Sequence record: ON286972
Strand: one strand, 5' to 3'
Length of the DNA stretch: 64,000 nucleotides
Source: Escherichia phage A4
The notes below the pieces were generated by a model. It did not search any database. It had not been told where the DNA came from and saw only the letters and a program-made list of their open reading frames with translations. The translations under genes were made by a program, and so were the position numbers. Shown piece by piece: positions 29,379 through 47,143 of the stretch. Position 1 is the stretch's first letter. Each line of letters begins with the position of its first letter.

Positions 29379-29406
29379 GGGTTGACTTAGGTCAGCCCTT
29401 TTTTTA
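29379..29406 (+). terminator. rho-independent terminator (GGGTTGAC-TTAG-GTCAGCCC + T7), same stem family as downstream cassettes
   Basis: hairpin plus T-run right after sigma-factor stop. Confidence 0.65.
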
Positions 29407-29929
29407 TGGGACAAAATGGATGTTCATGATACAATGATATTGTACAATTCTGTTGGCATGGATGACATGAACCTGATCCACTCGAAAATGTAGAGGGCAG
29501 TTGAGCAGTCCAGCAGTGCGAAGTGCAGAAGAAACCCGTCAGATGTGGGCATATTATGAACCCCTCACGGCAATGCGGCACTATAAAGAACCACGTTAGG
29601 ATGGCTGGTGGTTCCTCGATAGACATATAAGGATAACACCTTACGAATTATCTAAGGGAGAGTTATCAAATTTTGTACAGGAAAGTTGCGTCCAAAATTT
29701 GAGTACTCACATTAAGTATTTGATTGCATAGATACTTAATGAAGATACACTATGTTTAAAAGTGTAGACCGTCATATGAAACTGAAGTAGAGAGAAACAG
29801 GATGACCCGCTTTCGTACTCATTAAGAGTAATCTTCAATGCAATAGCTCTGATACCATCAGCGTCAAATTCCCCTCCCAGCGGGGGGAAGAAAAATCCCT
29901 TCCTCAAATCCCGTCAATATTAAAAGTCC

Positions 29930-29958
29930 TTGACAGTTATTAATCATTCGCGTAGAAT
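29930..29958 (+). promoter_or_regulatory. sigma70-type promoter (TTGACA-N17-TAGAAT)
   Basis: hexamers upstream of gene 30023. Confidence 0.5.
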
Positions 29959-30022
29959 ACGTAGTATTAGAAGCGAACAGACATCTCGAAGAGATGGATG
30001 ACTAACTATTAAGGAACATTCA

Positions 30023-30232
30023 ATGAATACTACAATCTTTTTAATTGTTGCTCTTTCAATGCAATCCGGTGTACAAATTACCCCTATGAATTCATTAAAC
30101 CAATGTTTTTCTGTACGTGATAGTACATACGAACAAGTAAACAAAAATTCTTGGATGACAGTTAGTGAAGAACAAATGTGGTGTTACAAAAGTGATATTA
30201 AAGCGAAATTTATTGTAGGACAAACTCAATGA
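30023..30232 (+). CDS. secreted small protein (signal peptide)
   Basis: ATG ORF with AAGGAA SD; N-terminal hydrophobic signal. Confidence 0.55.
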   Translation: MNTTIFLIVALSMQSGVQITPMNSLNQCFSVRDSTYEQVNKNSWMTVSEEQMWCYKSDIKAKFIVGQTQ

Positions 30233-30423
30233 TTTATCGAGTGAGGTTTGAAGTTTGTAAAATTGTTTTCAATAGCAAAGGTGAAGCCTCACTAGATGAA
30301 ACTATGCACATATATAATCTCCAATTTAGGGCAAAAACAGAAGCTGATGCATTAGTAAACATGTTTAATTTCAACCATAGGTGCGGGTATCATTTAGTAA
30401 GAGTTATAGAGGTTAAAAAGTAA
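30229..30423 (+). CDS. hypothetical protein
   Basis: ATGA overlap with upstream stop. Confidence 0.5.
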   Translation: MIYRVRFEVCKIVFNSKGEASLDETMHIYNLQFRAKTEADALVNMFNFNHRCGYHLVRVIEVKK

Positions 30424-30453
30424 TCACCGAATGCAGTGAAGAGGAAATCTAAA

Positions 30454-30717
30454 ATGAGTACTATCAATGCATTCAAGCACTTAGACAAAGGTATCAAACA
30501 CTTTGATGTTGAATGTTTAAATTCAGGTATGAATCGTTTAGTACAAATTTACATGAAATCGTTTATAGGTATTGACAGTGCACGACTACCAGTATATAAT
30601 TACTTTATTGAAAGCGTAGAAGGTGAATCACTTCGTGATTATGGTGAAAGATTTAATAAGAAAGTTTTCACTGCAATAGCAAATGAGATTCATTACTATA
30701 AACCCTATGTAATTTAA
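30454..30717 (+). CDS. hypothetical protein
   Basis: track ORF 30436..30717 trimmed to ATG after GAGGAA SD. Confidence 0.5.
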   Translation: MSTINAFKHLDKGIKHFDVECLNSGMNRLVQIYMKSFIGIDSARLPVYNYFIESVEGESLRDYGERFNKKVFTAIANEIHYYKPYVI

Positions 30718-30731
30718 TTAGAGGAACTATC

Positions 30732-30899
30732 ATGCAAATCATTATCTTAATCGTTGGTATCGGTTTGGGCATCTATGGACATTCATGGGTAACTGAGAAG
30801 TTTCCTGACACCCGTCCAGATTACTGTACAACTAAAACAGAAAGTACTGAAAGTATTGGAACTAAGATCGATAAAGTAATCGAGGTGATTAAACAATGA
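30732..30899 (+). CDS. small membrane protein (about 55 aa)
   Basis: short ORF with AGAGGAA SD, N-terminal TM helix; not in track; coordinates approximate. Confidence 0.4.
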   Translation: MQIIILIVGIGLGIYGHSWVTEKFPDTRPDYCTTKTESTESIGTKIDKVIEVIKQ

Positions 30900-30987
30900 T
30901 GAAACTTAATATATTTCTGGTTGTATTCACTGTCGTTGTTATCGGTATTGGTGCACTGGCATATATCCAACCTTAAAGGAAAAATAA

Positions 30988-31188
30988 ATGTTTAAATCGA
31001 ATACAAATGTTGGTAAGCAGGTTCAATTACTTGAAGACGTATCCACTATGAGTGGAACCTTCACTAAAGGTCACATCATGACTATTATTGCCGAAACATC
31101 CCGTGGCTGGGACTTGGAAGATGCTGATGGTAATCGCATCCTTGAGGCTGGCTTCTATGGTCATCGTGAATATAAAATTATCGATTAA
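30988..31188 (+). CDS. hypothetical protein
   Basis: ATG ORF with AAAGGAAA SD. Confidence 0.55.
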   Translation: MFKSNTNVGKQVQLLEDVSTMSGTFTKGHIMTIIAETSRGWDLEDADGNRILEAGFYGHREYKIID

Positions 31189-31284
31189 GGATATAACATG
31201 ATGTTAGAGGCTATCGTTGGTATTATTAGTTTAGTCGTCTGTGTAGGTTGGTTTGGGTATCTGATGATTTTTGGCGATTAATAC

Positions 31285-31312
31285 TTGACATAAGATATCA
31301 GTACTGTATAAT
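31285..31312 (+). promoter_or_regulatory. sigma70-type promoter (TTGACA-N16-TATAAT, CAGTACTG before -10)
   Basis: shares CAGTACTGTATAATGTTTAT with promoters at 13025, 13435, 42875. Confidence 0.55.
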
Positions 31313-31356
31313 GTTTATATCAACGACACCCACTTTAACAAATAATAGGAAATATT

Positions 31357-31635
31357 ATGTCTTTTACCAAAGAAGAACGTGACCTTATTAAAAAAGCAAT
31401 CTGGTTTTATGCTAATGAAGGGGAGTGCGATGAAGAAAAAGCACGTGAACTGTGTAATATCCTTGAGCAGAAACAAGAACTGAAAGTTTATCGTATCCGT
31501 GTTTTGGATGACGGGGATCGTATTGTCCTAGCTGAAACAAAAGAAGAAGCAGAACAAATCTTCACTGATAAAAACGAAAATCCACATTGGATGGAAGAAG
31601 TCTGTGAAGTAAAAAAAGGTACTTATATCGATTGA
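31357..31635 (+). CDS. hypothetical acidic protein
   Basis: ATG ORF with AGGAAA SD. Confidence 0.55.
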   Translation: MSFTKEERDLIKKAIWFYANEGECDEEKARELCNILEQKQELKVYRIRVLDDGDRIVLAETKEEAEQIFTDKNENPHWMEEVCEVKKGTYID

Positions 31636-31660
31636 CTGTACTGAATAATAGCAGTATAAT
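31632..31660 (+). promoter_or_regulatory. sigma70-type promoter (TTGACT-N17-TATAAT)
   Basis: -35 overlaps the stop codon of the upstream gene. Confidence 0.5.
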
Positions 31661-31672
31661 GTTTATATCAAA

Positions 31673-31723
31673 GGGAATGCAGTGAAAGGAAAGACAGCAT
31701 AATCGTACTCGTCACTGCGTTCC
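31673..31723 (+). promoter_or_regulatory. long 5'-leader hairpin (13-bp stem GGGAATGCAGTGA / TCACTGCGTTCCC)
   Basis: inverted repeat between promoter -10 and SD of gene 31754. Confidence 0.4.
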
Positions 31724-31753
31724 CGCCCTTTTAAATTAAATGAGGAATTAACT

Positions 31754-32062
31754 ATGTTTCAAACTAACACTCAAGGTTTTGTAATCATCGATTTGAATCA
31801 AAACAGCGGTTATTGGATGAAACCTACTGACGCATGTATGCAGTTTGATTTCTTAGGTTACAGAATTAGTGTAAGTACTGGTGCTTCTGTACTGCGTGGT
31901 GGTTGTATCGTTGAACATCTGGTAACTGATCCAGAAGGTCGTGAGTATGAAATCGCAGGTTCAGTACAAGATGCCATTATGTTTGTATGTCAGCGTGAAA
32001 TGAATGGTTCGAATTCAAATGCACTGACTCATGCTCTTTCTCAAGAAGTGGAGGTTCGTTAA
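31754..32062 (+). CDS. hypothetical protein
   Basis: ATG ORF with GAGGAA SD. Confidence 0.55.
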   Translation: MFQTNTQGFVIIDLNQNSGYWMKPTDACMQFDFLGYRISVSTGASVLRGGCIVEHLVTDPEGREYEIAGSVQDAIMFVCQREMNGSNSNALTHALSQEVEVR

Positions 32063-32307
32063 TGAAATATATTGTAGCAGTACTAATTGCTTTCCTACTC
32101 ACTGCATGTGATGCTTCAACAAAAGAACGAACTGGTGAGTTTGTTTTACCAACTGAACTCAAAGAAGCAGGGTGTAAGATTTATCGTATGCAACAGGAAG
32201 GTGCAGGTGCAACTTTGTACACTGTTTACTGTCCTAATGCAAACACTACTACGTCTTATATGAGTGGTAAAGTTCGCGTGGATACATCTGTGGTTCATGG
32301 AGAATAA
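32062..32307 (+). CDS. putative lipoprotein
   Basis: signal peptide with lipobox-like LTAC (MKYIVAVLIAFLLTAC). Confidence 0.55.
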   Translation: MKYIVAVLIAFLLTACDASTKERTGEFVLPTELKEAGCKIYRMQQEGAGATLYTVYCPNANTTTSYMSGKVRVDTSVVHGE

Positions 32308-32309
32308 CA

Positions 32310-32678
32310 ATGAGTCTTGATACTACTCGTTCGGCAAATATCTTGGAACGTTTGAATGATGAAGAATATCTTGCTAATGCAAAATATCAGCTTGAAAAAC
32401 TCATTCGAAATGTAAAATATGTTGATATCACTACACAGCTTCCACTAGATGAATATCACAAGTTAAACGAAGATATTGTATATCACCCAAATGAAATTTG
32501 GATTGAGTGGGAATCATGGACTCATTCGGTTCTCCGTATCGAAGGATATTGTGTGAAATATGAAAGTTCACCAGGTGATTTTACAAAAAAACTGTCGATA
32601 TTGTGCACTGACACACATGAAATAGTTGAGGTGAATTTGAATCATATGAAGGGTTGCCGTTGGGGAGATGTTAAATGA
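32310..32678 (+). CDS. hypothetical protein
   Basis: ATG ORF with GGAGAA SD. Confidence 0.5.
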   Translation: MSLDTTRSANILERLNDEEYLANAKYQLEKLIRNVKYVDITTQLPLDEYHKLNEDIVYHPNEIWIEWESWTHSVLRIEGYCVKYESSPGDFTKKLSILCTDTHEIVEVNLNHMKGCRWGDVK

Positions 32679-32950
32679 TTAAAAAACTCTTGACGGTGTT
32701 TGTTGTATTCTGTACAATGTTTCTTACAGCATGTAATGATGACGGCAGGTTCAGTGCAAAAGACTTAGTTCGTCAGGATTGTACATTCACAGGTAAGTCT
32801 TTTATTAACGAATATGAAATATGTACACAAGCAGGACGTATTTGTGGGGGTTGGGAAAAACGTCAGGAGCGTCTGTATGTATATGATTGTCCAGGACACC
32901 TCAACAAAGTACTAAGCACACACAAACTTGTTTATGATAAGGTTGAATAA
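32675..32950 (+). CDS. putative lipoprotein
   Basis: signal peptide with LTAC lipobox (MIKKLLTVFVVFCTMFLTAC). Confidence 0.55.
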   Translation: MIKKLLTVFVVFCTMFLTACNDDGRFSAKDLVRQDCTFTGKSFINEYEICTQAGRICGGWEKRQERLYVYDCPGHLNKVLSTHKLVYDKVE

Positions 32951-33159
32951 TGACTACCAATGAAATGATGCAGGTTATTTGGAATAAAGGTTGTGATATT
33001 AAAATCACTAGTACTGATGTTCGTGTATTCAAAACTGAATACATGGAATACTTGGACCTTGATACTTATAATAATATTGTATCAATTGAACACAAAGGTG
33101 CAGTACTGGAAACAATTGACGTTGTTCTCAAGAAAGCAACGGATTTATTGGGAGCATAA
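32950..33159 (+). CDS. hypothetical protein
   Basis: TAATG overlap with upstream stop. Confidence 0.5.
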   Translation: MTTNEMMQVIWNKGCDIKITSTDVRVFKTEYMEYLDLDTYNNIVSIEHKGAVLETIDVVLKKATDLLGA

Positions 33160-33160
33160 G

Positions 33161-33307
33161 GTGAACAATAAAGAATGGGAAGAGTACCGCAAGAAGTGCC
33201 GAGAGTTTGATAAAGAACTCACTGGTACTGTGAACGCAGTAATGTGGGTATCTGCAATAATTGCAGTACTGGGACTGTTTGCAGTTATCATTAATAAGTT
33301 TTTTTGA
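33161..33307 (+). CDS. small membrane protein (about 48 aa)
   Basis: track ORF 32993..33307 trimmed to GTG after GGGAG SD; C-terminal TM helix. Confidence 0.4.
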   Translation: MNNKEWEEYRKKCREFDKELTGTVNAVMWVSAIIAVLGLFAVIINKFF

Positions 33308-33316
33308 GGAATACAC

Positions 33317-33517
33317 ATGTTTACTTTATATCTAGCTGTAGTACTAACAAATGGTGAAATCACACGTACATTCGGTGATGGTGTATATAAAACACCTGAG
33401 CAGTGTTATTCTGCGACACACTGGCCTCGTGATGCTGGTGACGAAACTCGTACCGAATACAAATGTATGAAGGTCAAAGGTGACTTTGTTAACCTTAAGG
33501 TCATTGAGGTGAAGTAG
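33317..33517 (+). CDS. small secreted/membrane protein
   Basis: ATG ORF, N-terminal hydrophobic stretch. Confidence 0.5.
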   Translation: MFTLYLAVVLTNGEITRTFGDGVYKTPEQCYSATHWPRDAGDETRTEYKCMKVKGDFVNLKVIEVK

Positions 33518-34023
33518 TGAATCTTAGTACTGATAAGTTTGTAAAGTTCATAGAGTTTATCAATTTCAATGAGAGCTACAATGGTACGTACAATACTATG
33601 AATATTGTATCTGATAAAGTATTTGATAGTACAATGTTCTATTTGTATGATACAAACGGTGATAAGCTGTGTGATGTTACATTCGGTATTGGTGATCTTT
33701 TTGAATCTGCGGTTTATCTATCTAAACCAACGGTGCGTGATACATATGAAATTCACTTTCATAATAGACCGAATCACAAAAACATTGTAGAATATGATAT
33801 ACCATCATCACACGAACTGTTCATTGTAGATTACAGTACTGAAGAGGGTGTATTTCAAAGTTCATTGCTATACAACTTTGAACTACACGATCCTGATATT
33901 CCTAAAGTACTGGCAATTTCGAATAAGGTATGTGAATTGCCATATAACATATACATGTCAGTTCCTGGTAAAAGAGTAGGTAATTTCTGTAAAGCCTTTG
34001 ACATACAAGCGGATGATAAATGA
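33517..34023 (+). CDS. hypothetical protein, EE-x-Y-F-Q family (TEEGVFQSS)
   Basis: GTG start after GAGGTGAAG SD. Confidence 0.5.
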   Translation: MNLSTDKFVKFIEFINFNESYNGTYNTMNIVSDKVFDSTMFYLYDTNGDKLCDVTFGIGDLFESAVYLSKPTVRDTYEIHFHNRPNHKNIVEYDIPSSHELFIVDYSTEEGVFQSSLLYNFELHDPDIPKVLAISNKVCELPYNIYMSVPGKRVGNFCKAFDIQADDK

Positions 34024-34244
34024 ACAGATACGTGATTGAATACGTGGGTATATCTGAATTTGATAACATTCGTGGCTATGAAAAGGTCATGAGTGAACGC
34101 ACGATATATGTTAGGGGTCGCGATGAAGCCCATGTTCTCTCTTTACTGTTAAATGACCTGACAAAGTTCAATACAACAAAGACACAACGTTATATTGAAA
34201 CAATTAAATCTATTAAACTTTTAGACGAGGATGATGAAGAATGA
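34020..34244 (+). CDS. hypothetical protein
   Basis: ATGA overlap. Confidence 0.5.
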   Translation: MNRYVIEYVGISEFDNIRGYEKVMSERTIYVRGRDEAHVLSLLLNDLTKFNTTKTQRYIETIKSIKLLDEDDEE

Positions 34245-34453
34245 ATTTATATCTAGTAGAAGGTACAGTGCAGGTTTTCCGTTTTGATGGTGATCGTGGT
34301 ATGCGTTTCTCACATGTTGAAGAATTTAAATTTGTCGTACATGCAGAAGGTGAGTACGAAGCTGAGATTAAAGTATCTGAATCCTTTGATAAGAAAGAAA
34401 CCGTAGATGTACAGTATCAGCAACTACAATTTAAAGTGTGGCCTACGCTTTAA
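34241..34453 (+). CDS. hypothetical protein
   Basis: ATGA overlap. Confidence 0.5.
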   Translation: MNLYLVEGTVQVFRFDGDRGMRFSHVEEFKFVVHAEGEYEAEIKVSESFDKKETVDVQYQQLQFKVWPTL

Positions 34454-34457
34454 AAAC

Positions 34458-34486
34458 TTGACACGCATGTAAAAAGCGAGTATTAT
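34458..34486 (+). promoter_or_regulatory. sigma70-type promoter (TTGACA-N17-TATTAT)
   Basis: hexamers upstream of gene 34518. Confidence 0.5.
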
Positions 34487-34517
34487 ATCTGTATTATGAA
34501 TTAACTGAGGAATACGT

Positions 34518-35183
34518 ATGCTCGCCAATTTAAGTTACATTATTAGTGATGATATGGTACAAAGTCGTGGGATGTATCTTGAGAAAGTTCCATACGATAG
34601 CGATGGTATCAAAGGAACTTTATACGAAAGTCGTTTTGACAGAAAGCATCCATTCTGGGAAAAGGCTAATCTAACGGAAGAAGATAGTAATCGTTTATTT
34701 TGTGCTGTGCAGACACCTACACCTGGTATATTAGCGGGTTATGGTATAGATAAAGTCATTAACTTTATGACAGACTATGAAGTTATTGAACGTCTTCAAT
34801 ATATTAATACGAACAATGGTGAGTTCTATAATTCTGATGATTTTCTTGCTATGTGTAGTGCTTCATATGAGAGTGAATTATTGCCAAGTGGTAGACCATT
34901 CCCATTGTCAACACATTGTAATTCCCCTTACGGTGTAGCTGACAACTTACAGCAGATCCTTAAGAAACATAAGAATGTTCTTACATCTGAAATGGAAGTT
35001 GTTATTGGATTTCATCCAGTGTACAAGGAAGATCAACCTGAACATGGTGGGTGGCGTTGGCATAAGCACGGCACATACATTGGTACTCATAAGAAAAAGC
35101 ATGAGTACTTGTATGATGAAGAAGGTATTGATGTTGTTTATTGTTACGAACTAATCCCAGTAAAGAAAAAGGAAACACTATAA
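34518..35183 (+). CDS. hypothetical protein
   Basis: ATG ORF with TGAGGAA SD. Confidence 0.6.
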   Translation: MLANLSYIISDDMVQSRGMYLEKVPYDSDGIKGTLYESRFDRKHPFWEKANLTEEDSNRLFCAVQTPTPGILAGYGIDKVINFMTDYEVIERLQYINTNNGEFYNSDDFLAMCSASYESELLPSGRPFPLSTHCNSPYGVADNLQQILKKHKNVLTSEMEVVIGFHPVYKEDQPEHGGWRWHKHGTYIGTHKKKHEYLYDEEGIDVVYCYELIPVKKKETL

Positions 35184-35425: not shown

Positions 35426-35434
35426 ACCTATAAT
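35406..35434 (+). promoter_or_regulatory. sigma70-type promoter (TTGACA-N17-TATAAT)
   Basis: overlaps 3' end of upstream gene, precedes gene 35458. Confidence 0.5.
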
Positions 35435-35457
35435 ATCCTTCTACTAAGGGGGATATT

Positions 35458-35718: not shown

Positions 35719-35738
35719 ATTAATATGAGGAACTACTA

Positions 35739-36917: not shown

Positions 36918-37267
36918 TGAAAGTTATATTATTTTTTATGTGTATTATTATGTGTGGTGTCTCTTATGCTGCACCCTTAGCCGGATTGCTTTGTAAAGAG
37001 AATTCTGAACAACACATATTCCAAGGGGATTCAGATGACCTTGATATCATTTACATCGATGGTACTGAATATACATACGTTAAAGACCATACTGTTGGTG
37101 ATATCAGTTTCACTGAATATGCAAAAACAGGTGACACTGATTATAGAGCCTACCTTCAAGTGAATATGATAGAGGGTGAAGACGGAACACAAGAAGTCAA
37201 ACTCGTACTTAAACGTATTGGAGATAAGGAGGCTGATTTTGGAGGTGAGTGTACATATGATGATTGA
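36914..37267 (+). CDS. secreted protein (signal peptide)
   Basis: ATGA overlap; N-terminal MMKVILFFMCIIMCGVSYA. Confidence 0.55.
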   Translation: MMKVILFFMCIIMCGVSYAAPLAGLLCKENSEQHIFQGDSDDLDIIYIDGTEYTYVKDHTVGDISFTEYAKTGDTDYRAYLQVNMIEGEDGTQEVKLVLKRIGDKEADFGGECTYDD

Positions 37268-37275
37268 TTAAAAAA

Positions 37276-37308
37276 GGTTGACTAACGTCAGCCTTTTTTG
37301 TTATACTG
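37276..37308 (+). terminator. terminator-promoter stem-loop cassette (stem contains TTGACT; T-run; then TATACT)
   Basis: GGTTGAC-TAAC-GTCAGCC TTTTTTG TTATACT; TTGACT to TATACT spacing 18. Confidence 0.6.
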
Positions 37309-37316
37309 ATCCCAAT

Positions 37317-37442
37317 ATGCTTGCATTTCTTCAAGTTGATGTATATGAAGAAAGTAATGGCGAACAGTATGTTAAACTTGTGATGATGCGTAAGGCAGCA
37401 AAACAGGCAACATTCGGTGGCTTGTGTAAATATGAGGACTAA
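37317..37442 (+). pseudogene. 41-codon ORF paralogous to the C-terminus of gene 36914..37267 (partial duplicate)
   Basis: LQVDVYEESNGEQYVKLVMMRKAAKQATFGGLCKYED vs LQVNMIEGEDGTQEVKLVLKRIGDKEADFGGECTYDD; directly after cassette. Confidence 0.45.
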
Positions 37443-37446: not shown

Positions 37447-37638
37447 ATGTTGATTTATCAATGTGATAACATTCGTGTTATACAGCATCCCTACTTACAA
37501 ATCTTTGATGTGCAGCAGTATATGGAAGGTGATGACCCAAGAACCTATGGTCGTAAGTATGATTACTTCACTGTAAAGCAGTGTCGTAACATCAAAGAAG
37601 TACGACAATTAGTTCAAGAACTTCAAAATAAAGGTTGA
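37447..37638 (+). CDS. hypothetical protein
   Basis: track ORF 37417..37638 (GTG) trimmed to ATG after GAGGA SD. Confidence 0.5.
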   Translation: MLIYQCDNIRVIQHPYLQIFDVQQYMEGDDPRTYGRKYDYFTVKQCRNIKEVRQLVQELQNKG

Positions 37639-37664
37639 CTTCGGTCAGCCTTTTTTGTTATAAT
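37633..37664 (+). terminator. terminator-promoter stem-loop cassette
   Basis: GGTTGAC-TTCG-GTCAGCC TTTTTTG TTATAATCATTTCATC. Confidence 0.65.
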
Positions 37665-38993: not shown

Positions 38994-38999
38994 ACTACG

Positions 39000-39030
39000 G
39001 GGTTGACATAAGTCAGCCCTTTTGTATAAT
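39000..39030 (+). terminator. terminator-promoter stem-loop cassette
   Basis: GGGTTGAC-ATAA-GTCAGCCC TTTTG TATAAT. Confidence 0.6.
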
Positions 39031-40060: not shown

Positions 40061-40284
40061 TGAAAAGGTATAAAATTGAATACCTACTTAAAGTAAGAGA
40101 GAAAAGTATTAGTAGTGAGAAATACACCAGTGAGATATTCGTCAGAGATGAGTATTACATTGGTGAAAATGAAGTTGAAGTACTGTTACAATGCATAGAA
40201 AATGAATTTCAAGATATGACACGTTATATGTCATTTGAGATATCGTGTGCAAAAGTTACATTCTTGAACAATACTTCATATTAA
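40057..40284 (+). CDS. hypothetical protein
   Basis: ATGA overlap. Confidence 0.5.
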   Translation: MMKRYKIEYLLKVREKSISSEKYTSEIFVRDEYYIGENEVEVLLQCIENEFQDMTRYMSFEISCAKVTFLNNTSY

Positions 40285-40288
40285 AAAA

Positions 40289-40313
40289 GGGTTGACTTTT
40301 GTTGACCCTTTTT
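40289..40313 (+). terminator. terminator stem-loop of the cassette family (GGGTTGAC-TTTT-GTTGACCC + T-run)
   Basis: hairpin with wobble pairs followed by TTTTT. Confidence 0.55.
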
Positions 40314-40320
40314 GCTATTC

Positions 40321-40328
40321 TATAAATA
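40321..40328 (+). promoter_or_regulatory. TATAAATA box (exact T4-type late-promoter consensus)
   Basis: TATAAATA about 47 nt upstream of the ATG of gene 40375, no -35 element. Confidence 0.4.
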
Positions 40329-40374: not shown

Positions 40375-41913
40375 ATGCCAGGTAAATTCACTGACAAAAA
40401 CGGCGGCAATATGGCTGGACACTCTGATAAATGGAGTGATGAGAATCGTCGCAAAAATAGTTTCCAAGCGGGGCAAGGTTCCCGTGGCTCTCGCAACCAA
40501 GGAACGGGAGAAGCTGGGAAAGCAAACACAGTTGCATCACAGGGTCTTGATACTTCAAACATGTCCCAGCATGAAAAATTGAAGTACTTCAATAGTCTTG
40601 GTCTTTTAAATCCGCAGCAGAAGCAACAACTTGCTGCACTGGATAAAGCACAAGAACAACCTAAAGCAGCACCAGAAGCACCTGCACAGCCTAAAGCGGC
40701 TAATCCGGTAAAAGAACTAAGTGATAAACTTGGGAAGATCTTTGCTAACAAACCACAACTAATTCAAGGTATCGTAAAAGCACTTCAAGCGGTTCCTAAA
40801 GAACAACTCAAGGATAAAGCACAAGCTGTTCTTGATAGTATGAAAGGGAATACCAGTACTGAACCAACTGAAGTATTCAGTACTATCATGCGTGCACTTG
40901 AAGGTAAGCCACAGGCTGATGATGATATTGAGTTTGATGAACCTGCACAAGAAGTAGCAAATCTTGACTCAATCGTTTCTACATTTGGAAAAATTGGTGC
41001 AGAAGATAAGACTAATGCACAACAAGTTAAGAATGTACAAGCTAAGTTACAAAATCGTCTTGAAGGTAAAGATGAAAAGATTAAACTTGCAGCAGATGCG
41101 TTGAAGAAAGCATTAGAATCATATAAACCTGGTGAGAAATCTCGCTTCATTACTGCAATGAATGCAGTATTCGGTGCAATGAAGAAGTATGAAGCTGAAC
41201 ACGGTGAGAAAGTAACTCCTGATGGATATCTCCTTCGCAAAGATGAAGAAGGTGCTGTTGACCAGAAGGACGCTGAACCAGACTATGGTAATTTACCAGA
41301 TACAGTTGATATGGATGGTTACATTCATCGTCCTGATATGCAAGAATTTGGTTCAGACAAAGAAGGTTTTGAACATGCTATGGCTGTGTACAAAGCATTA
41401 GTCGATAATCCACAATATGCAAATAGTTTTGTAGATGAGTTTGATAGTGCATGGAACAACTACCAAGACAAAGGATATGATTTCCCAGCAGAAGCAGCAT
41501 TCTTTGAACTAGGTAAACTTCTTGCTAAAAATGGTATTAATGTTGGTTCTAATGGTGAAGCAAACACTTCAGAAATGGACGCTGAATTGGCTAAAGATCG
41601 TGAAATGACTGATAAGTCAATTCATGAACTACAAAAGCTAATGATGTGGATTGCTGAAATTGGCAAGAAAGCTGGTGCAGATCCTAAGAGCATTAACAGC
41701 AATATTAGTTGGATTAAACATAAGGTTGATAACAATGCCCGTAAATTACAAAAGGCATGGACCGACCTAGTGAATGGTGCAGACGATGTTGATATCGATT
41801 CACCAGAAGCATACGAGTACGCATTGAACACACTTGATAACTCTTTCAAGGATTACGAAAATGGTAACGTAACTGATTGGGAAAAGGATATCATGCATAA
41901 GTACGGTAAATGA
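40375..41913 (+). CDS. large low-complexity Lys/Glu/Ala-rich protein (candidate late/internal virion protein)
   Basis: 512-aa ORF with GGAGA SD; Gly/Gln-rich N-terminus, PKAAPEAPAQPKAA linker; function inferred only. Confidence 0.6.
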   Translation: MPGKFTDKNGGNMAGHSDKWSDENRRKNSFQAGQGSRGSRNQGTGEAGKANTVASQGLDTSNMSQHEKLKYFNSLGLLNPQQKQQLAALDKAQEQPKAAPEAPAQPKAANPVKELSDKLGKIFANKPQLIQGIVKALQAVPKEQLKDKAQAVLDSMKGNTSTEPTEVFSTIMRALEGKPQADDDIEFDEPAQEVANLDSIVSTFGKIGAEDKTNAQQVKNVQAKLQNRLEGKDEKIKLAADALKKALESYKPGEKSRFITAMNAVFGAMKKYEAEHGEKVTPDGYLLRKDEEGAVDQKDAEPDYGNLPDTVDMDGYIHRPDMQEFGSDKEGFEHAMAVYKALVDNPQYANSFVDEFDSAWNNYQDKGYDFPAEAAFFELGKLLAKNGINVGSNGEANTSEMDAELAKDREMTDKSIHELQKLMMWIAEIGKKAGADPKSINSNISWIKHKVDNNARKLQKAWTDLVNGADDVDIDSPEAYEYALNTLDNSFKDYENGNVTDWEKDIMHKYGK

Positions 41914-41923
41914 TAAAAAAAGA

Positions 41924-41955
41924 GGTTGACTTCGGTCAGCCTTTTTTGCTATAAT
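41924..41955 (+). terminator. terminator-promoter stem-loop cassette
   Basis: GGTTGAC-TTCG-GTCAGCC TTTTTTG CTATAAT. Confidence 0.65.
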
Positions 41956-41983
41956 ACTCTCATAACCTAAAAGGAGAAACTCT

Positions 41984-42259
41984 ATGAACACATACGAACG
42001 TTTAGTTGGCTCAATGCGTTATGAAGAAATTTTAAGTGATATTGAAGAACTGAAAGACTCTAAAAGTTACATCCACTTAGATGAACTTATCGTGAAGTAT
42101 GGGGAGGTTGGTGCAAAAGAATTAATTTGCTTTATGGTTCATGTTCGAAATTTAAATTACTTTGATCTTTCATCGAAGAACGGTGAACCGAATCTTTATT
42201 ATCTATATTATTTGAAACATAAAGATGCATGTAATAAATTATTCTTAGAACTTTTATAA
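41984..42259 (+). CDS. hypothetical protein
   Basis: ATG ORF with AAGGAG SD. Confidence 0.55.
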   Translation: MNTYERLVGSMRYEEILSDIEELKDSKSYIHLDELIVKYGEVGAKELICFMVHVRNLNYFDLSSKNGEPNLYYLYYLKHKDACNKLFLELL

Positions 42260-42272
42260 CTGGAGATATCTA

Positions 42273-42533
42273 ATGCAAAACCCTGAATTGAAAATGTTTA
42301 CACAAATCCGTCTTGCTCGTGTTGAACATGACACTAACTATGTACTGAACGATGGTCCTCCACAACGCGTTGAAGTTGGTTATATTGACGTTGATAATTC
42401 ACAATCTCTTCTGATTACCATTGGTTCTAACTCTTACAGTGTTGCTACACTGGAGAGTGTATTGTCCCTGGCACAATCCGCAAGGATTGCCCGTAACGCT
42501 CTTATGAACTGTGATGAACCTGATAATGAATGA
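42273..42533 (+). CDS. hypothetical protein
   Basis: ATG ORF with TGGAGA SD. Confidence 0.55.
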   Translation: MQNPELKMFTQIRLARVEHDTNYVLNDGPPQRVEVGYIDVDNSQSLLITIGSNSYSVATLESVLSLAQSARIARNALMNCDEPDNE

Positions 42534-42537
42534 TTAT

Positions 42538-42864
42538 ATGTATGAATTAAACCTGGTATCGTTTATCGTATCAGGACTAGGATGGATGTACTATATGCTT
42601 GGGTATATTTTATTATTCTTCCGATACAATACATTCTACAAACGCTATTGGGATGATGCACCAATTCACTTCTTCGCATTTGTATTCTTAACTATGGCAG
42701 TGGGTGAAGTACTGCTAACTGGTATCCAAAGTACTGGTGGAATGATGTGCACACTAACAACATTCTTTGTTGTTTTTGGGACTGTAGTTTGGTTTTTCGC
42801 GTGGGGACTCTTCTCTTTGATTATGAAACTTGAGAAACTCCGAGACAAATTACCAGAGCGTTGA
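42538..42864 (+). CDS. multi-pass membrane protein
   Basis: track ORF 42511..42864; several in-frame starts (GTG 42511, ATG 42514/42526/42538); start uncertain. Confidence 0.4.
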   Translation: MYELNLVSFIVSGLGWMYYMLGYILLFFRYNTFYKRYWDDAPIHFFAFVFLTMAVGEVLLTGIQSTGGMMCTLTTFFVVFGTVVWFFAWGLFSLIMKLEKLRDKLPER

Positions 42865-42874
42865 TGAAAAGTAT

Positions 42875-42902
42875 TTGACAAACTCAACTAGTACTGTATA
42901 AT
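42875..42902 (+). promoter_or_regulatory. sigma70-type promoter (TTGACA-N16-TATAAT with CTAGTACTG before -10)
   Basis: same family as 13025 and 31285. Confidence 0.55.
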
Positions 42903-42949
42903 GTTTATCAAGGGGATGAACTTCTCATCCCTACAATCGAGGAACTACC

Positions 42950-43501
42950 ATGATTACTTTTAAGAAAACTGCCAACCACATCCATGAAATTTACATTAAC
43001 GGTCACAAAGCTGGCCTTCTTCGTTTACTCGCCCATCATCCTGATGTTACCGTATCTGATAATGAACCTAAAGATTGGCGTGTATTTTTCTTTGGAAAGT
43101 ACAGTGATTTTCAAGTATCAAACCTGAAGAACATTCGTTCAGTATGCACGTTAACTGAAATTAAAGAAAAGTTAACCAAAGCATTGAAAACTAATCCAGA
43201 TGGTGTTCTTCCACCTGATAACTTTGTAGAGAAAGGATATGCCTTAGCTCATTTCAAAGATGGTACTATTCAATCTATCAGTACTGAATATGAATACCAA
43301 TGGACTGAGTACTTCACTTATGGCTCCCGTAATACTTTGATGGCTTCACGTAGTAAATTGGAAGAAGTACTGACTCGTATGAATGAACGCGAGCGTCAGT
43401 ACTATGAACCAGAAATGTGGAGTTCAACTTACATTGACCGTATTGACTATGTTATGATGACTCCAATCTTTGACACTGCTTACTATGATTCTTTGAAATA
43501 A
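42950..43501 (+). CDS. hypothetical protein
   Basis: ATG ORF with GAGGAA SD. Confidence 0.6.
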   Translation: MITFKKTANHIHEIYINGHKAGLLRLLAHHPDVTVSDNEPKDWRVFFFGKYSDFQVSNLKNIRSVCTLTEIKEKLTKALKTNPDGVLPPDNFVEKGYALAHFKDGTIQSISTEYEYQWTEYFTYGSRNTLMASRSKLEEVLTRMNERERQYYEPEMWSSTYIDRIDYVMMTPIFDTAYYDSLK

Positions 43502-43512
43502 GGATAACTTAT

Positions 43513-43689
43513 ATGAAACTACGTACTCGCAATCGACTGATGGATGCCCTATATCATGAACAGTGTTCATTAAATGAAGTAAAGCGTCAGTTAATGTACA
43601 CATATCAGTTACCCGCTCGTGTTGCAAAACAACGTGCTAACGAATTGCTGAAAGAAGCAATCGAGTACTGGGAATCTGATTCGTACTAA
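43513..43689 (+). CDS. small basic protein (about 58 aa)
   Basis: short ORF with AAGGA SD; not in track; coordinates approximate. Confidence 0.4.
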   Translation: MKLRTRNRLMDALYHEQCSLNEVKRQLMYTYQLPARVAKQRANELLKEAIEYWESDSY

Positions 43690-43728
43690 TATTACGTGAT
43701 ATGTCACGTTAATTAAGTGAGGCGATAA

Positions 43729-43980
43729 ATGAAAATATTATTAGTTCTAATACTACTAATTGTTTTACCATTTACTTTAGTATCCCCTGAACTTGCATGG
43801 AATGTGTTTGTGTACTTAGTATGTACTATTGTAGTAAATGGTATCTTGTTCTTAGTTCTATTCATAAATGGAATAGGACACGGTGGAGGATGGACCAGTA
43901 CTGCTGATATTGTACATAAAACCACTATGTCTTTATTTGTAGTGTGGAATTTATTCTGGACTTGGTTTGTGTTCTTCTAA
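43729..43980 (+). CDS. small membrane protein
   Basis: ATG ORF with GAGG SD; hydrophobic helices. Confidence 0.5.
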   Translation: MKILLVLILLIVLPFTLVSPELAWNVFVYLVCTIVVNGILFLVLFINGIGHGGGWTSTADIVHKTTMSLFVVWNLFWTWFVFF

Positions 43981-43989
43981 TTAAAAAAT

Positions 43990-44361
43990 ATGAATATAGA
44001 TTTGAAAGGTGCAACACGAACTGTCATACTCATTGGGGAATATGCTATCAAGATTCCAACCTTCAAAAGCTGGAAGTTATTCCTAACTGGAATGATAGCT
44101 AACCTCAATGAACGCTCATGGATGCAGTACTCCAAGCGTAGTGACAGTGGGATATGTCCTACTCTGTGGTCATCGCGAACTGGCTTAATAACAGTACAGA
44201 AACGTTGTAAGCCAGTACAACATAGGGGTTTGTTTTGGGTGGAGTTGAGTGCATTAGCATTGAATTCAGAGTTGAGTACTGACTTCTTCTATTCAGATGC
44301 GAAGCCAGAAAACTTTGGATATTTGAATGGTAAGTTAGTTAAGCTTGATTATGGAGATTAA
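43990..44361 (+). CDS. protein-kinase-like mini protein (catalytic-loop DAKPEN and DYG motifs)
   Basis: AIKIP (beta3 Lys-like), YSDAKPENFG (HRDLKPEN-like), KLVKLDYGD (DFG-like) with kinase-like spacing; ORF ends right after the DYG motif. Confidence 0.45.
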   Translation: MNIDLKGATRTVILIGEYAIKIPTFKSWKLFLTGMIANLNERSWMQYSKRSDSGICPTLWSSRTGLITVQKRCKPVQHRGLFWVELSALALNSELSTDFFYSDAKPENFGYLNGKLVKLDYGD

Positions 44362-44388
44362 TATGTACGCATTGTATAATAAAGAAAA

Positions 44389-44422
44389 GGATTGACTTCA
44401 GTCAGCCCTTTTTTCTATAATC
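44389..44422 (+). terminator. terminator-promoter stem-loop cassette
   Basis: GGATTGAC-TTCA-GTCAGCCC TTTTTT CTATAATCATTTCATC. Confidence 0.6.
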
Positions 44423-44449
44423 ATTTCATCGAAACGAGAGGATGAATAC

Positions 44450-44887
44450 ATGACACGCATTAACTTAGTACATGTTAAAGAACTTGCTGACCAACATCTG
44501 ATGGCTGAATATCGTGAACTTCCACGTGTGTTTGGTGCTGTACAAAAACATGTTCAAGCACGTAAGCGTGTACGTGATTTCAAAATTAACAGTACTTATC
44601 TGTTAGGTTCAGGTCATGTAACATTCTTCTACGACAAGTTACTATACTTACAGAAGCGTCATATTGATATTGTTAACGAATGTTTGCGTCGTGGTATGAA
44701 GATTCAAAACACTGAAGTAAACGACATTAGCGGCTTCCCTGCTGAGTTTTGTAATGACTACGTACCATCGGAGTCCGAGATTAAAACATCACGCGAGCGT
44801 TTGATTGAGAAGCTTCAGATGAAGCCTAAGTGGTATAAGTTTACTGATGTTGAGCTACCTATATATTATGTTGATATGATACAATGA
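44450..44887 (+). CDS. denV: pyrimidine-dimer DNA glycosylase (T4 endonuclease V homologue)
   Basis: N-terminus [31 protein letters not shown] closely matches T4 endonuclease V as I recall it; SD GAGAGG. Confidence 0.9.
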
Positions 44888-45111
44888 ATGATGAAGAATT
44901 CAAAAAATATGCGATTGCGAAGCTTGATTCATACAAGTCACGCGAAACGTATAAATTTAATCCTGATAAAACAAAAGCATCTATAAGATGGATGATTAAT
45001 TCACCCAAATATACATTTGACGAAAAATATTCATGGATAGTGCAATGTAGTGATTATGAGGATTTGGTATATAATATTAAACTGTGTTGGTATGAATACA
45101 ACAATAAATGA
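44884..45111 (+). CDS. hypothetical protein
   Basis: ATGA overlap with denV stop. Confidence 0.5.
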
Positions 45112-45116
45112 TATAA

Positions 45117-45150
45117 GGGGTTGACTTCGGTCAGCCCTTTTTGCTATAAT
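45117..45150 (+). terminator. terminator-promoter stem-loop cassette
   Basis: GGGGTTGAC-TTCG-GTCAGCCC TTTTTG CTATAATCATTTCATC. Confidence 0.65.
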
Positions 45151-45176
45151 CATTTCATCAAATTAAGAGGTGATAC

Positions 45177-45416
45177 ATGAAACTATCTTTTATACGTTTA
45201 GCAGAATTCTTCGGTACTGATATAATTACTTTACAACAAATTGCAGACAATACTTCATTAAGTACACAAGAAGTACTTGACTTAGATGTGATAGAGTGTG
45301 ATAATACTTCTATCGATTATAAAGAAGGTCTTGTCGAAAAAGATAAGATTCAGGCTAAGATTAATGGTGCTGGACGGGTTCAGTACTGGAAAGGAGTTTT
45401 AAGTCATGCCAGCTAA
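45177..45416 (+). CDS. hypothetical protein
   Basis: ATG ORF with AGAGG SD. Confidence 0.55.
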   Translation: MKLSFIRLAEFFGTDIITLQQIADNTSLSTQEVLDLDVIECDNTSIDYKEGLVEKDKIQAKINGAGRVQYWKGVLSHAS

Positions 45417-47103
45417 ATTAACCCCTAAACAAGCAAAAGAAAAATTCAACAAAAAAGTATTAGAACATAACGTTCCAATTGAAGCTGATTATAGTAAGTA
45501 TGAAAATGCCAAATTAAAAAACATCCAAGTAGTTTGCAATGATGTATTAAAACACAAATCAGGCATATCACAAATATATCTTATGGATCACGCAAACCTC
45601 ACACACCCATCCAAAAAATTTGGTTGTCCTGAATGTGAAGACTGGTATAATGGTCATGCTAAAAGTTTAGATATTTTAATTGTTAGGGAAAGAATTAATT
45701 CTTGGATTAGTACTTATGGCGGGATTATTGATACGGTTAGTGGTGAAGTTGAAGTTTATAAAAATAATTCATCCAAAATACCATATATTTGTAAAAATGG
45801 AACTAAAAAAACGCTTACTATTTCTTCACTTGGCGATGAAATCGGTTGTAATTGTTCTAAATGTAAAGCTGAATTAATATCAGAAATCGAAGATAACAAT
45901 GAATATACATCCATGACTACTGTTGATGATTGTGTTACAATTTCCCATTTTAAATTTGGGGATGATGTTGCATTCTCGTGGATTTCACCATTGGAAATGA
46001 AAAAACATGGTTACTGTCTTGCCGAAAAAATGAAAGAAAAAGCATTGTCGGTTGGTAAAAATATTATTGGATATGCAATATCATCTCTTAGTGAATGGAA
46101 AAATGAAAAAACTCCTGTAATAACCGAACACGAAGGAGTATTATATCGTATTTCCAAAGCATCATATTTGATCAATAATAATATAGTACATAGACCACAT
46201 TATACAAAAAATAATTTTTTATATTATTTTTACAAATGTTCACCTAACAATCAACTTATTACACCAATCCTAATACCTGATGATATTGGTACAAAAAAGA
46301 AAATTAAAGTATGTTATAAATCATGTGGGTGTGAATATGATATATCTGTGGACGTTATAATGAACAGAAATTTAAAAACTTGTGGAAACTGTAAAAATAT
46401 AGATACTAATAAATTTATAGAACAGTGCTTGGAGTTCACTTCAAGTGGAGATTATATCTATGATAGAGTAAACTATATAAATCAAAGTACACCTGTAACT
46501 ATAGTTCATAAAATTTACGGCGAATTCAAAAGTACACCACAAAATCACTTAATACATTTAAAAAACGGTTTGAAATATGATACAGCTAACTTTAAAATAA
46601 AAAATTTAACTCAATTTAAAATTAAAGCAAATGAAGTTCATAATAACTTATATAATTATGATAAAGTTGATTATGTAAATTCTTCAACGAAAGTATTAAT
46701 AACTCATCCAGTATATGGAGACTTTTGGCAAACTCCAGCAAGTCACCTTGGTGGGTGTGGTCATCCACTTGCGGCTGGTCATTCTCAGCAATATGCATAT
46801 ATTCATAATATTTTGGATGGTGTTTTATCTGTAGCATTGAAATATGGGATTGAAAAGCAGAAAGGTAAGAGGGTGATGCAGCAAAATAAAAAATCCATGT
46901 TTCAAGTTCAATCTCTGTATACTTATTTTTTTCCATCTGTATACGAATGTAAGCAAGCTGAAAAAGAATGTAAGAAACTATTTGGTAAAGGTGTTTTAAC
47001 TAAACAAGAAATGCCAGACGGGTATACTGAAACAACTACACCAAACAACATAGATAAAATTATTGCCATCTATGAAAAATGGGGTGGGGTGAAACAAAAC
47101 TAA
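45406..47103 (+). CDS. Cys-rich protein with tandem internal repeats (candidate zinc-binding/DNA-binding protein)
   Basis: 565-aa ORF; multiple C-x2-C pairs (CPECEDW, CNCSKCKAE, CGCEYD, CGNCKN); repeated Y-D-x-V-x-Y-x-N-x-S-T-x-V-x-I-x-H-x-x-Y-G-x-F module. Confidence 0.6.
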   Translation: MPAKLTPKQAKEKFNKKVLEHNVPIEADYSKYENAKLKNIQVVCNDVLKHKSGISQIYLMDHANLTHPSKKFGCPECEDWYNGHAKSLDILIVRERINSWISTYGGIIDTVSGEVEVYKNNSSKIPYICKNGTKKTLTISSLGDEIGCNCSKCKAELISEIEDNNEYTSMTTVDDCVTISHFKFGDDVAFSWISPLEMKKHGYCLAEKMKEKALSVGKNIIGYAISSLSEWKNEKTPVITEHEGVLYRISKASYLINNNIVHRPHYTKNNFLYYFYKCSPNNQLITPILIPDDIGTKKKIKVCYKSCGCEYDISVDVIMNRNLKTCGNCKNIDTNKFIEQCLEFTSSGDYIYDRVNYINQSTPVTIVHKIYGEFKSTPQNHLIHLKNGLKYDTANFKIKNLTQFKIKANEVHNNLYNYDKVDYVNSSTKVLITHPVYGDFWQTPASHLGGCGHPLAAGHSQQYAYIHNILDGVLSVALKYGIEKQKGKRVMQQNKKSMFQVQSLYTYFFPSVYECKQAEKECKKLFGKGVLTKQEMPDGYTETTTPNNIDKIIAIYEKWGGVKQN

Positions 47104-47109
47104 ACAAAA

Positions 47110-47143
47110 GGGTTGACTTCGGTCAGCCCTTTTTGCTATAATT
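47110..47143 (+). terminator. terminator-promoter stem-loop cassette
   Basis: GGGTTGAC-TTCG-GTCAGCCC TTTTTG CTATAATTATTTCATC. Confidence 0.65.

Follow-up and report, generated by a model that had tools for sequence, protein, structure and literature searches.

Probable PeSL-type terminator-promoter cassettes in the early hyperplastic region of an Asteriusvirus jumbo coliphage, Escherichia phage A4

The fusion of an early promoter and a stem-loop into one short element, the promoter-early stem-loop (PeSL), is known from T4-like phages. In RB49 and phi1, a PeSL combines a promoter of the sigma-70 type with an AT-rich tract, a G/C stem-loop, and the Shine-Dalgarno sequence and ATG of the next gene; five subclasses differ in the position of the stem, which in one of them overlaps the -35 box (Arbiol et al. 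2010, PMC2839356). On reporter plasmids, RB49 PeSLs drove lacZ and one stem-loop was tested for termination, while inverse polymerase chain reaction (PCR) showed that PeSL-PeSL exchange in RB49 gives rise to mini-circles (PMC2839356). The PeSLs of nt-1 and KVP40 have a stem of the formula A3-4 G3 - loop - C3 T3-4 (Comeau, Arbiol and Krisch 2014, PMC4122927). Here we describe nine hairpin cassettes from Escherichia phage A4 (sequence record ON286972), in a stretch of 64,000 nucleotides referred to below as the window. Situated in the early hyperplastic region of an Asteriusvirus jumbo coliphage, they probably represent composite regulatory elements of the PeSL type (KVP40/nt-1 subtype). The design is that of the T4-like phages; what is new is the different phage lineage.

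The host genome is not of the T4 type: it belongs to Asteriusvirus, not to Straboviridae. Between 36.5 and 47.5 kb the window resembles the Asteriusvirus jumbo coliphages vB_Eco_slurp01 (hereafter slurp01), 121Q, PBECO4 and G17. Even the best relative covers just 58% of this region (91% identity, seven pieces), so the window represents a new member of the RaK2-like jumbo phages. Most open reading frames (ORFs) of the region have no Pfam match. Among related phages, CBB has its RpoD-like promoters concentrated in what is presumed to be the early region (PMC5259590), and PA5oct depends on the host RNA polymerase (PMC7318152). In the CBB and PA5oct papers, promoters and terminators appear in separate lists and PeSLs go unmentioned; the RaK2 paper mentions neither promoters nor terminators.

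All nine hairpins predicted from the letters alone proved real, with coordinates (first G of the stem) that were 1-3 nt off. Eight of them match the core TTGACNNNNGTCA exactly, on the + strand only (29382, 37278, 37635, 39003, 41926, 44392, 45121 and 47113); the shuffle expectation is 0.91, and none of 100 shuffles gave eight. The ninth, at 40292, is the variant GGGTTGAC-TTTT-GTTGACCC, which keeps the pairing with two wobbles. Twenty copies, drawn from the window, slurp01, 121Q, KVP40 and Vibrio phage D481, went into a covariance model that was run unfiltered over all 64 kb. The model returned the nine copies at 40.7-72.5 bits and no degenerate or additional ones; the runner-up on the + strand, at 18 bits, was an ordinary, unrelated terminator at 51189. 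Every cassette is intergenic, on the coding strand, in a space of 45-90 nt. All are packed into 17.8 kb, with none in the remaining 46 kb of the window.

The consensus of the cassette (ca. 50 bases) reads AAAA-GGGTTGAC-TTCG-GTCAGCCC-TTTTTGC-TATAAT-CATTTCATC. From 5' to 3', its hairpin half consists of an A-tract (3-6 nt), a G+C-rich stem of 8-9 bp with 5-6 G-C pairs, a tetraloop, which in the window copies is usually UUCG, and 4-7 T directly 3' of the stem. A hairpin with a T-run and TTGAC(T/A) in the 5' arm, as had been predicted, was seen in all nine copies. Minimum free energies of the hairpins range from -10.5 to -18.2 kcal/mol (z-scores -2.7 to -6.6). In the 20 copies behind the covariance model, 99.4% of stem cells are paired and the basal pair covaries (G-C in 12, A-U in 7). 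We also searched the viral contigs of IMG/VR with a pattern made of the hairpin plus three T's, the -10 being left unspecified, and at least 120 stretches were matched. Stem pairing was 98.7% across 125 distinct viral-contig copies, in which one stem position was U.G in 98 cases against U-A in 18. Due to this wobble, RNA of the + strand folds better than that of the - strand (-17.6 vs -12.9 kcal/mol). The loops of the 178 distinct hairpins among the matches listed were mostly UUCG (51/178) or GAAA (19/178), both of them RNA-stabilising tetraloops. Taken together, the pairing, the wobble, the tetraloops and the U-run point to selection on an RNA hairpin, that is, on a putative intrinsic terminator, whose hallmarks (G+C stem, short loop, adjoining U-run) are all apparent in the cassettes. 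Orthologous hairpins are annotated as ARNold terminators in the GenBank record of G17. Two plain Rho-independent terminators of the window (ca. 22070-22098 and 51189-51216) share the A-tract, G+C stem, tetraloop and T-run with the cassettes, but their stems are unrelated, without TTGAC and without a -10 in register.

In the promoter half, the -35 box TTGAC(T/A), formed by part of the 5' arm and the first loop base, was found in all nine. TATAAT follows after an 18-nt spacer at 37635, 41926, 44392, 45121 and 47113, and after 16 nt at 39003, where the promoter is a perfect 12/12; at 37278, TATACT stands at 18 nt. Thus, a TATAAT-type -10 at 16-18 nt, expected for most copies, is present in 7/9 (six TATAAT, one TATACT). 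The copy at 40292 has a weak TATTCT (4/6) followed by TATAAATA, and the one at 29382 lacks a -10 at proper spacing. Six of the nine deviate from the consensus by no more than one mismatch, with -35, spacer and -10 in fixed register, and five carry the extended-10 TGn. The -10 is followed by CATTTCATC in three copies and by TATTTCATC in a fourth, and a GAGG-like Shine-Dalgarno sequence with an ATG lies 20-35 nt beyond it. In IMG/VR, a -10 hexamer of at least 5/6 at 16-19 nt accompanied 75% of the 178 distinct hairpins among the matches listed, compared with 12% of the other TTGAC sites in the same loci; the commonest spacers among the matches listed were 17 nt (81 copies) and 18 nt (68 copies). 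Promoters matching at least 11/12 consensus positions number 36 on the + strand of the window and 0 on the - strand, which suggests that the whole + strand block is early-type.

Some further observations concern promoters and leaders. A second class of near-consensus early promoters, devoid of hairpins, occurs on the + strand at 13025, 13434, 22655, 31285, 31632 and 42875 and shares its spacer and flank, ...(C)AGTACTG-TATAAT-GTTT(A/G)TATC. Those at 13025 and 13434 are identical across ca. 35 nt, the latter lying just 5' of the tRNA-Gly gene. In cassettes, the first transcribed bases after the -10 may follow the formula (C)ATCGAAAC(G/A)A..AGG, exemplified in the window at 44422-44449. Such leaders were also seen in slurp01, Turkey5, KVP40, RaK2 and IMG/VR contigs (e.g., L026, L027 and L029), and their recurrence in cassettes of unrelated phages exceeds the needs of a promoter plus Shine-Dalgarno sequence. 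At cassette 3 (numbering as in the table below), the TGA stop of the gp191 homologue (37636-37638) lies inside TTGAC, as it also does in 121Q and slurp01; coding sequence, -35 and terminator stem thus overlap at this point.

The closest counterpart is found in KVP40. When the 46-nt consensus was used as a BLAST query, KVP40 was matched over the full length, with the element 5' of ORF232 showing 80% identity over 46 nt in the same register. This ORF231-ORF232 site was discussed by the PeSL authors themselves (PMC4122927). Its element, AAAGGGTTGAC-TACG-GTCAACCC-TTTCTTG-TATTAT-AGCTTCATCGAAAC (in full AAAGGGTTGACTACGGTCAACCCTTTCTTGTATTATAGCTTCATCGAAAC), is nearly identical to the cassettes, and for this reason we place them with the PeSLs of the KVP40/nt-1 subtype. 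Stem formula, a -35 within the 5' arm, a -10 at 17-18 nt, and then a short leader, Shine-Dalgarno sequence and ATG are common to both, as are repetition among small ORFan genes and, it appears, a position beside indels (PMC4122927). Moreover, the leader of the KVP40 copy 5' of ORF232 contains TTCATCGAAAC, as does the window consensus. The likeness to PeSLs of T4-type phages, noted in the original prediction, was therefore supported by an element of the same architecture and nearly the same sequence, together with the link to a -10 (75% vs 12%). Differences exist as well. The cassettes reside in an Asteriusvirus (RaK2-like jumbo) instead of a T4-like member of Straboviridae, and their -10 is nearer to the consensus (TATAAT vs TAWWAT). 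While KVP40 copies are spread across ca. 140 kb, those found in 121Q with the pattern are confined to ca. 14 kb of 348 kb.

With the PeSLs of RB49 and phi1 (PMC2839356), the cassettes share the composite makeup and a presumed role in the insulation of ORFan cassettes. However, the RB49 stem varies in position, mostly between -35 and -10 or over the -10, whereas the window stem always carries the -35; and RB49 elements were studied with lacZ fusions and by inverse PCR of mini-circles, those of the window by sequence analysis. A looser parallel is offered by the morons of lambdoid phages (the concept of Hendrix 2000, as discussed in PMC2839356), which, like the units delimited by cassettes, combine a gene with its own promoter and terminator; unlike in the cassettes, the two signals are separate and non-repeated in morons and are not thought to mediate insertion. 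Our statements on function draw on the sequence and on the RB49 experiments. On this basis, we regard a regulatory function of the predicted cassettes as well supported.

Two copies depart from the fused design, so that the statement that each element terminates and re-initiates transcription applies to most cassettes but not to copy 1, which has no -10, nor to copy 5, which has the late-type TATAAATA. In slurp01 and 121Q, the orthologue of copy 1 reads GGTTGGC-TTAT-GCCAACC. Here, an A-U to G-C compensatory change kept the stem and abolished the -35, and stem and -35 consequently appear to be under separate constraints; TTGAC is kept only where a -10 goes with the hairpin. With no -10 in register, copy 1 reads as a terminator only, at which the transcript of the preceding sigma-factor gene would end. 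As to copy 5, TATAAATA is the T4-type late promoter motif; ATAAATA has been reported 5' of structural genes in CBB and GAP32 (PMC5259590). In the window, TATAAATA occurs once in 64 kb on either strand (40321-40328; expected 11.3 +/- 3.5), 47 nt 5' of a virion structural gene, and is kept after the hairpin in 5/5 relatives. The position 5' of a virion gene and the rarity elsewhere are what one would expect of a putative T4-type late promoter. Since the motif is single, conserved and 5' of a structural gene, we suppose that a lone late gene stands here between two hairpins (40292 and 41926), under a late promoter of its own. The PmSL elements of nt-1 (PMC4122927) are comparable to copy 5 in that a stem-loop goes with a non-early promoter; theirs, however, is a middle-mode Mot-box promoter, whereas copy 5 has the late motif TATAAATA in its place. 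The two PeSL papers (PMC4122927, PMC2839356) do not name a form that joins a hairpin to a late promoter. As a separate observation, TATAAATA appears strongly avoided throughout the early region (1 vs 11.3 +/- 3.5).

A scenario for how the cassettes might work can be put forward. An incoming upstream transcript would fold into G(G)GUUGAC-tetraloop-GUCAGCC(C) and end in the U-run, as at intrinsic terminators. In DNA, the 5' arm plus the first loop base would serve as the -35 TTGAC(T/A), with the 3' arm and the T-run filling the 16-18-bp spacer, and the TG-extended TATAAT would let the host sigma-70 RNA polymerase start ca. 7 nt beyond. The new transcript would not terminate itself, because its start site lies downstream of the hairpin, and the short leader would supply the Shine-Dalgarno sequence for the next gene. 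The whole intergenic space of 45-90 nt would then be one element that insulates each unit of one to four genes and gives it its own early promoter. Copy 1 would have retained the terminator alone. At copy 5, the terminator and the late TATAAATA would shield the virion gene from early read-through and allow its late expression, and copy 6 would end the late transcript and restart early transcription. As a secondary and less certain role, the cassettes might act as homology patches for the exchange of gene blocks, which is conceivable because the copies share near-identity over 45-75 nt.

The same hairpin with a -10 in register is widespread. In Asteriusvirus genomes, BLAST found 6-9 places each, and the covariance model gave 8-10 matches in the one syntenic locus. 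In 121Q, where the first 50 kb, the syntenic 30 kb and the IMG/VR pattern matches were covered, all pattern matches fall at 98.7-112.7 kb of the 348.5-kb genome, and the first 50 kb (replication and structural genes) contain no cassettes. An identical hairpin with a -10 in register was found in RaK2, GAP32, the 378-kb CBB genome and jumbo phages of Serratia, Yersinia and Erwinia, as well as in KVP40-like phages, Aeromonas phage 65, contigs of ca. 150 kb and Brochothrix phage A9, whose host is Gram-positive. Contigs that are nt-1-like or KVP40-like carry the identical hairpin too. We rejected a host origin of the cassette, as none of 5,426 complete E. coli genomes contains a match to the 46-nt consensus. 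It is tempting to speculate that a ca. 45-nt cassette (A-tract, GGGTTGAC-UUCG-GUCAGCCC, T-run, TGn-extended -10, AUCGAAAC-type leader) moves horizontally as a "plug-and-play" module between unrelated large virulent phages and serves as a common recombination linker in the building of early regions. We consider this rather unlikely; the alternative is that each lineage converged on the same optimal design.

The coordinates of the cassettes and of the genes next to them are collected in the table.

Table. Cassettes and neighbouring genes in the 64-kb window of phage A4 (functions are predicted)
Feature	Position	Strand	Characteristics
Phage sigma-70-family sigma factor gene	28409..29371	+	Pfam Sigma70 r3, r2, r4; phrog_351 2.4e-50
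Cassette 1	29374..29405	+	A-tract, GGGTTGAC-TTAG-GTCAGCCC, T7 run; 48.5 bits; -18.2 kcal/mol
Cassette 2	37270..37307	+	AGGTTGAC-TAAC-GTCAGCCT, T-run, TG-extended TATACT, 18 nt; 52.9 bits; -15.7 kcal/mol
Truncated duplicate of the 3' end of the 121Q gp190 homologue (amino acids 63-108)	37305..37442	+	tblastn
Cassette 3	37627..37664	+	AGGTTGAC-TTCG-GTCAGCCT, T-run, TG-extended TATAAT, 18 nt, CATTTCATC; 67.8 bits
Cassette 4	38995..39030	+	GGGGTTGAC-ATAA-GTCAGCCC(T); TTGACA-16-TATAAT; 40.7 bits
Cassette 5	40284..40328	+	GGGTTGAC-TTTT-GTTGACCC, T-run, TATTCT, TATAAATA; 50.3 bits; -15.7 kcal/mol
Virion structural protein gene (121Q gp201 homologue)	40375..41913	+	phrog_20398 1.8e-201; tblastn 74% to gp201
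Cassette 6	41918..41955	+	AGGTTGAC-TTCG-GTCAGCCT, T-run, TG-extended TATAAT, 18 nt; 66.7 bits
Cassette 7	44384..44421	+	GGATTGAC-TTCA-GTCAGCCC, T-run, TATAAT, 18 nt, leader CATTTCATCGAAACGAGAGG; 61.5 bits; -10.5 kcal/mol
denV-like pyrimidine dimer DNA glycosylase gene	44450..44887	+	Pfam Pyr_excise 8.8e-15; phrog_1183 4.1e-59
Cassette 8	45113..45150	+	GGGGTTGAC-TTCG-GTCAGCCC(T), T-run, TG-extended TATAAT, 18 nt, CATTTCATC; 71 bits
Endonuclease-like ORF (565 amino acids)	45406..47103	+	phrog_681 endonuclease 7e-48; phrog_559 HNH endonuclease 5e-19
Cassette 9	47105..47142	+	GGGTTGAC-TTCG-GTCAGCCC, T-run, TG-extended TATAAT, 18 nt, TATTTCATC; 72.5 bits; -17.6 kcal/mol
AAA-ATPase-like gene, downstream of cassette 9	47171-47941		Pfam AAA-family matches; phrog_1250

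The gene upstream of cassette 1, whose stop lies 3 nt before the cassette begins, is annotated as an RNA polymerase sigma factor in slurp01, 121Q, Turkey3, Turkey5 and vB_Ec-M-J. Cassette 2 has no counterpart at the same position in the relatives. The duplicated gp190 fragment right after it, which is 73.9% identical to 121Q gp190, against 55.6% for the full-length copy at 36944-37267 (both by tblastn), is a putative recombination scar. Orthologues of cassette 3 exist in 5/5 relatives. Cassette 4 precedes a gp197 homologue of 192 amino acids, at a junction that carries no copy in slurp01 and 121Q. The stem of cassette 7, 5' of denV, contains one A.C mismatch. Of the genes that the original prediction had placed next to cassettes, denV (after cassette 7) and the ATPase (after cassette 9) were recovered. 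The "Cys-rich protein" does exist as an ORF upstream of cassette 9, but it matches endonucleases (phrog_681, phrog_559), and its product is probably a free-standing homing-type endonuclease. A kinase-like ORF was not found: a tblastn search of the window with the 121Q kinase gp205 came back blank, and a Pfam scan of 20 ORFs (28.4-48 kb) revealed no kinase domain.

Do the cassettes mark module boundaries, as had been proposed? Six copies support this at the nucleotide level, but in statistical terms the enrichment is no more than moderate. Homology blocks shared with slurp01/121Q start at 40283, 44381, 45107 and 47106, each within 6 nt of a cassette 5' edge. At 45107, homology restarts after a replaced ORF (44884-45111), and at 47106 the homology with 121Q resumes at cassette 9, which is abutted by a variable segment (45406-47103) with other genes in its place in 121Q, Turkey3 and vB_Ec-M-J. 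Homology with slurp01/121Q also resumes at 37323, just past cassette 2, while that with slurp01 stops at 41957, just beyond the -10 of cassette 6. In Turkey3 and vB_Ec-M-J, which are 99% identical, the ends of two replaced segments coincide exactly with cassettes (22368/22065 and 25120/23469). In total, blocks end 1-6 nt from cassette edges in at least six independent cases. Compared with 121Q, the window lacks gp199-200, gp202-205 (including the gp205 kinase), gp208-211, gp216, gp218-219 and gp221-222, the loss of gp202-205 lying downstream of cassette 6, and has extra cassettes at 37278 and 39003. Such a cassette-bearing region is an apparent mosaic. After the structural gene, cassette 6 and its orthologues have the hairpin half in common and three different -10/leader halves, with different genes downstream, which suggests crossovers inside the cassette. 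Likewise, the leader of the vB_Ec-M-J cassette at 22063 is that of a paralogous cassette and not that of its 121Q orthologue, which suggests conversion between copies. We note that 121Q encodes RecA/UvsX-like and UvsY-like proteins. For the junction test, ORF chains were called and adjacency was scored by blastp in 30 ordered genome pairs, which are not independent of each other; adjacency was lost more often at cassette junctions in 30/30 of these pairs, with p from 0.019 to 0.41 (e.g., 8/9 vs 19/42, p=0.019; 3/9 vs 3/56, p=0.03).

Overall, we consider a recombination role of the cassettes plausible but unproven, with homing-type endonuclease turnover and selection at transcription-unit ends as serious alternatives. 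The latter two can be joined into a scenario in which the cassettes are regulatory only and mark the edges of variable segments through insertions tolerated at the ends of transcription units, together with endonuclease turnover. We find this quite possible, while leaning slightly against it. The comparison of flanking genes with relatives, which had been proposed as a check, speaks for both sides: block ends do fall at cassette edges, but most variable segments abut a cassette at just one end and, at the other, the stop codon of a conserved gene (e.g., denV or gp220). This fits poorly with simple cassette-to-cassette exchange by mini-circles, a model that we rejected because most variable segments are not flanked by a cassette at each end. 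Several of these segments are HNH/endonuclease genes able to spread alone (45406-47103 in the window, EcMJ_557 and EcMJ_562 in vB_Ec-M-J, gp221 in 121Q), and one homology block starts at the hairpin-less promoter 42875. The junction enrichment is modest, most p-values lying between 0.05 and 0.4 and many of them between 0.1 and 0.4. A purely regulatory role, on the other hand, has difficulty with block ends so close to cassette edges, with the single hairpin half joined to three -10/leader halves, with the paralogue-like leader at 22063, and with the mini-circles demonstrated in RB49 (PMC2839356). A transposon or miniature inverted-repeat transposable element was also considered and rejected, as the copies show neither target duplications nor any terminal repeat other than the hairpin, and stand in a single orientation at gene ends.

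The identification as PeSL-type cassettes must itself be weighed against two other readings. The hairpins might be ordinary terminators whose TTGAC was inherited from one duplicated ancestor and has no promoter role, with TATAAT unused or served by other -35s. The G17 record labels the orthologues as terminators only, copy 1 is a terminator without -10, and an 18-bp spacer is suboptimal. We nevertheless hold this to be very improbable, given a -10 register fixed in 7/9 copies and in 75% of the 178 hairpins among the matches listed, which come from many unrelated phages, the TGn of five copies, the retention of TTGAC with a -10 and its loss by compensatory change without one, and the unrelated stems of the terminators at 22070 and 51189. 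Alternatively, the inverted repeat could be a DNA operator over the -35 for a dimeric phage or host regulator, or the promoters could be read by the phage sigma factor. In favour of this are the palindromic nature of the repeat and its overlap with the -35, the phage sigma-70-family gene directly 5' of copy 1, and the speculation of the PeSL authors on a protein binding the GGGG...CCCC stem (PMC2839356). Yet the half-sites are non-identical in most copies (TTGAC vs CTGAC), the preference for U.G over U-A (98 to 18) fits RNA pairing and not a symmetric DNA site, the loops are RNA-stabilising tetraloops, and a T-run comes after every stem. Furthermore, this cassette is shared by phages whose hosts differ widely, the Brochothrix phage among them, which argues for the universal primary sigma factor over a lineage-specific protein; we hardly credit this second reading at all. 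Several points still weigh against the PeSL interpretation. Our literature search turned up no transcript ends, reporter or in vitro transcription data for Asteriusvirus. We can only infer recognition of the cassettes by the host sigma-70, because the phage encodes its own sigma-70-family factor. Most copies have an 18-bp spacer, exceeding the 17-bp optimum. Finally, many equally strong early promoters of the window have no hairpin; the fused form is thus one subclass, and fusion is not required for early expression.

Three further regions of the window deserve a comment. On the + strand, an ORF-free stretch of ca. 480 nt (ca. 29440-29925) separates cassette 1 from a promoter at 29930; shortly before it, an extended -10, TGATACAAT, is found at 29427-29435. 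The stretch is 97-100% identical among five Asteriusvirus genomes, whose flanking genes differ by ca. 18%. Counterparts with 68-71% identity over nearly the full length occur in CBB, GAP32, XbC2 and Yersinia phage fHe-Yen9-04, and one covering ca. 85% of the query in Salmonella phage Munch, among others; the corresponding gaps in relatives are mostly unannotated. RNAalifold on eight sequences gave 80 pairs, 29 of which show compensatory double changes. A search of Rfam came back blank, and nhmmer detected no similarity to lncRNA002 of PA5oct. Thus, the stretch looks like a candidate undescribed structured RNA beside the phage sigma-factor gene. Six tRNA genes (Ser-TGA, Gly-TCC, Ser-GCT, Met-CAT, Asn-GTT and Thr-TGT) form a cluster on the + strand at 12491-15560. 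Lastly, 955 nt at 22341-23295 contain no ORF of at least 60 amino acids on the coding strand; this region is situated between the plain terminator at ca. 22070-22098 and two perfect 12/12 promoters, at 22655 and 23321.

Records for this group of phages list the hairpins as terminators only, and the group's papers predict terminators and RpoD-like promoters apart from each other. Read as fused units, the cassettes would extend the PeSL concept beyond the T4-like phages, to at least 120 viral-contig stretches, with a -10 in register in three quarters of the hairpins among the matches listed. The cassette may also be seen as a compact natural part of ca. 50 nt, predicted to insulate and restart transcription. 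If cassettes do guide recombination, for which the evidence is suggestive only, this would help to explain the mosaic early regions of jumbo phages. The fused-unit reading accounts for a late virion gene within an early region by two bracketing hairpins and the only TATAAATA in 64 kb. It would also chart the early transcription units of a group of 350-kb phages, more than 80% of whose genes have no known function.

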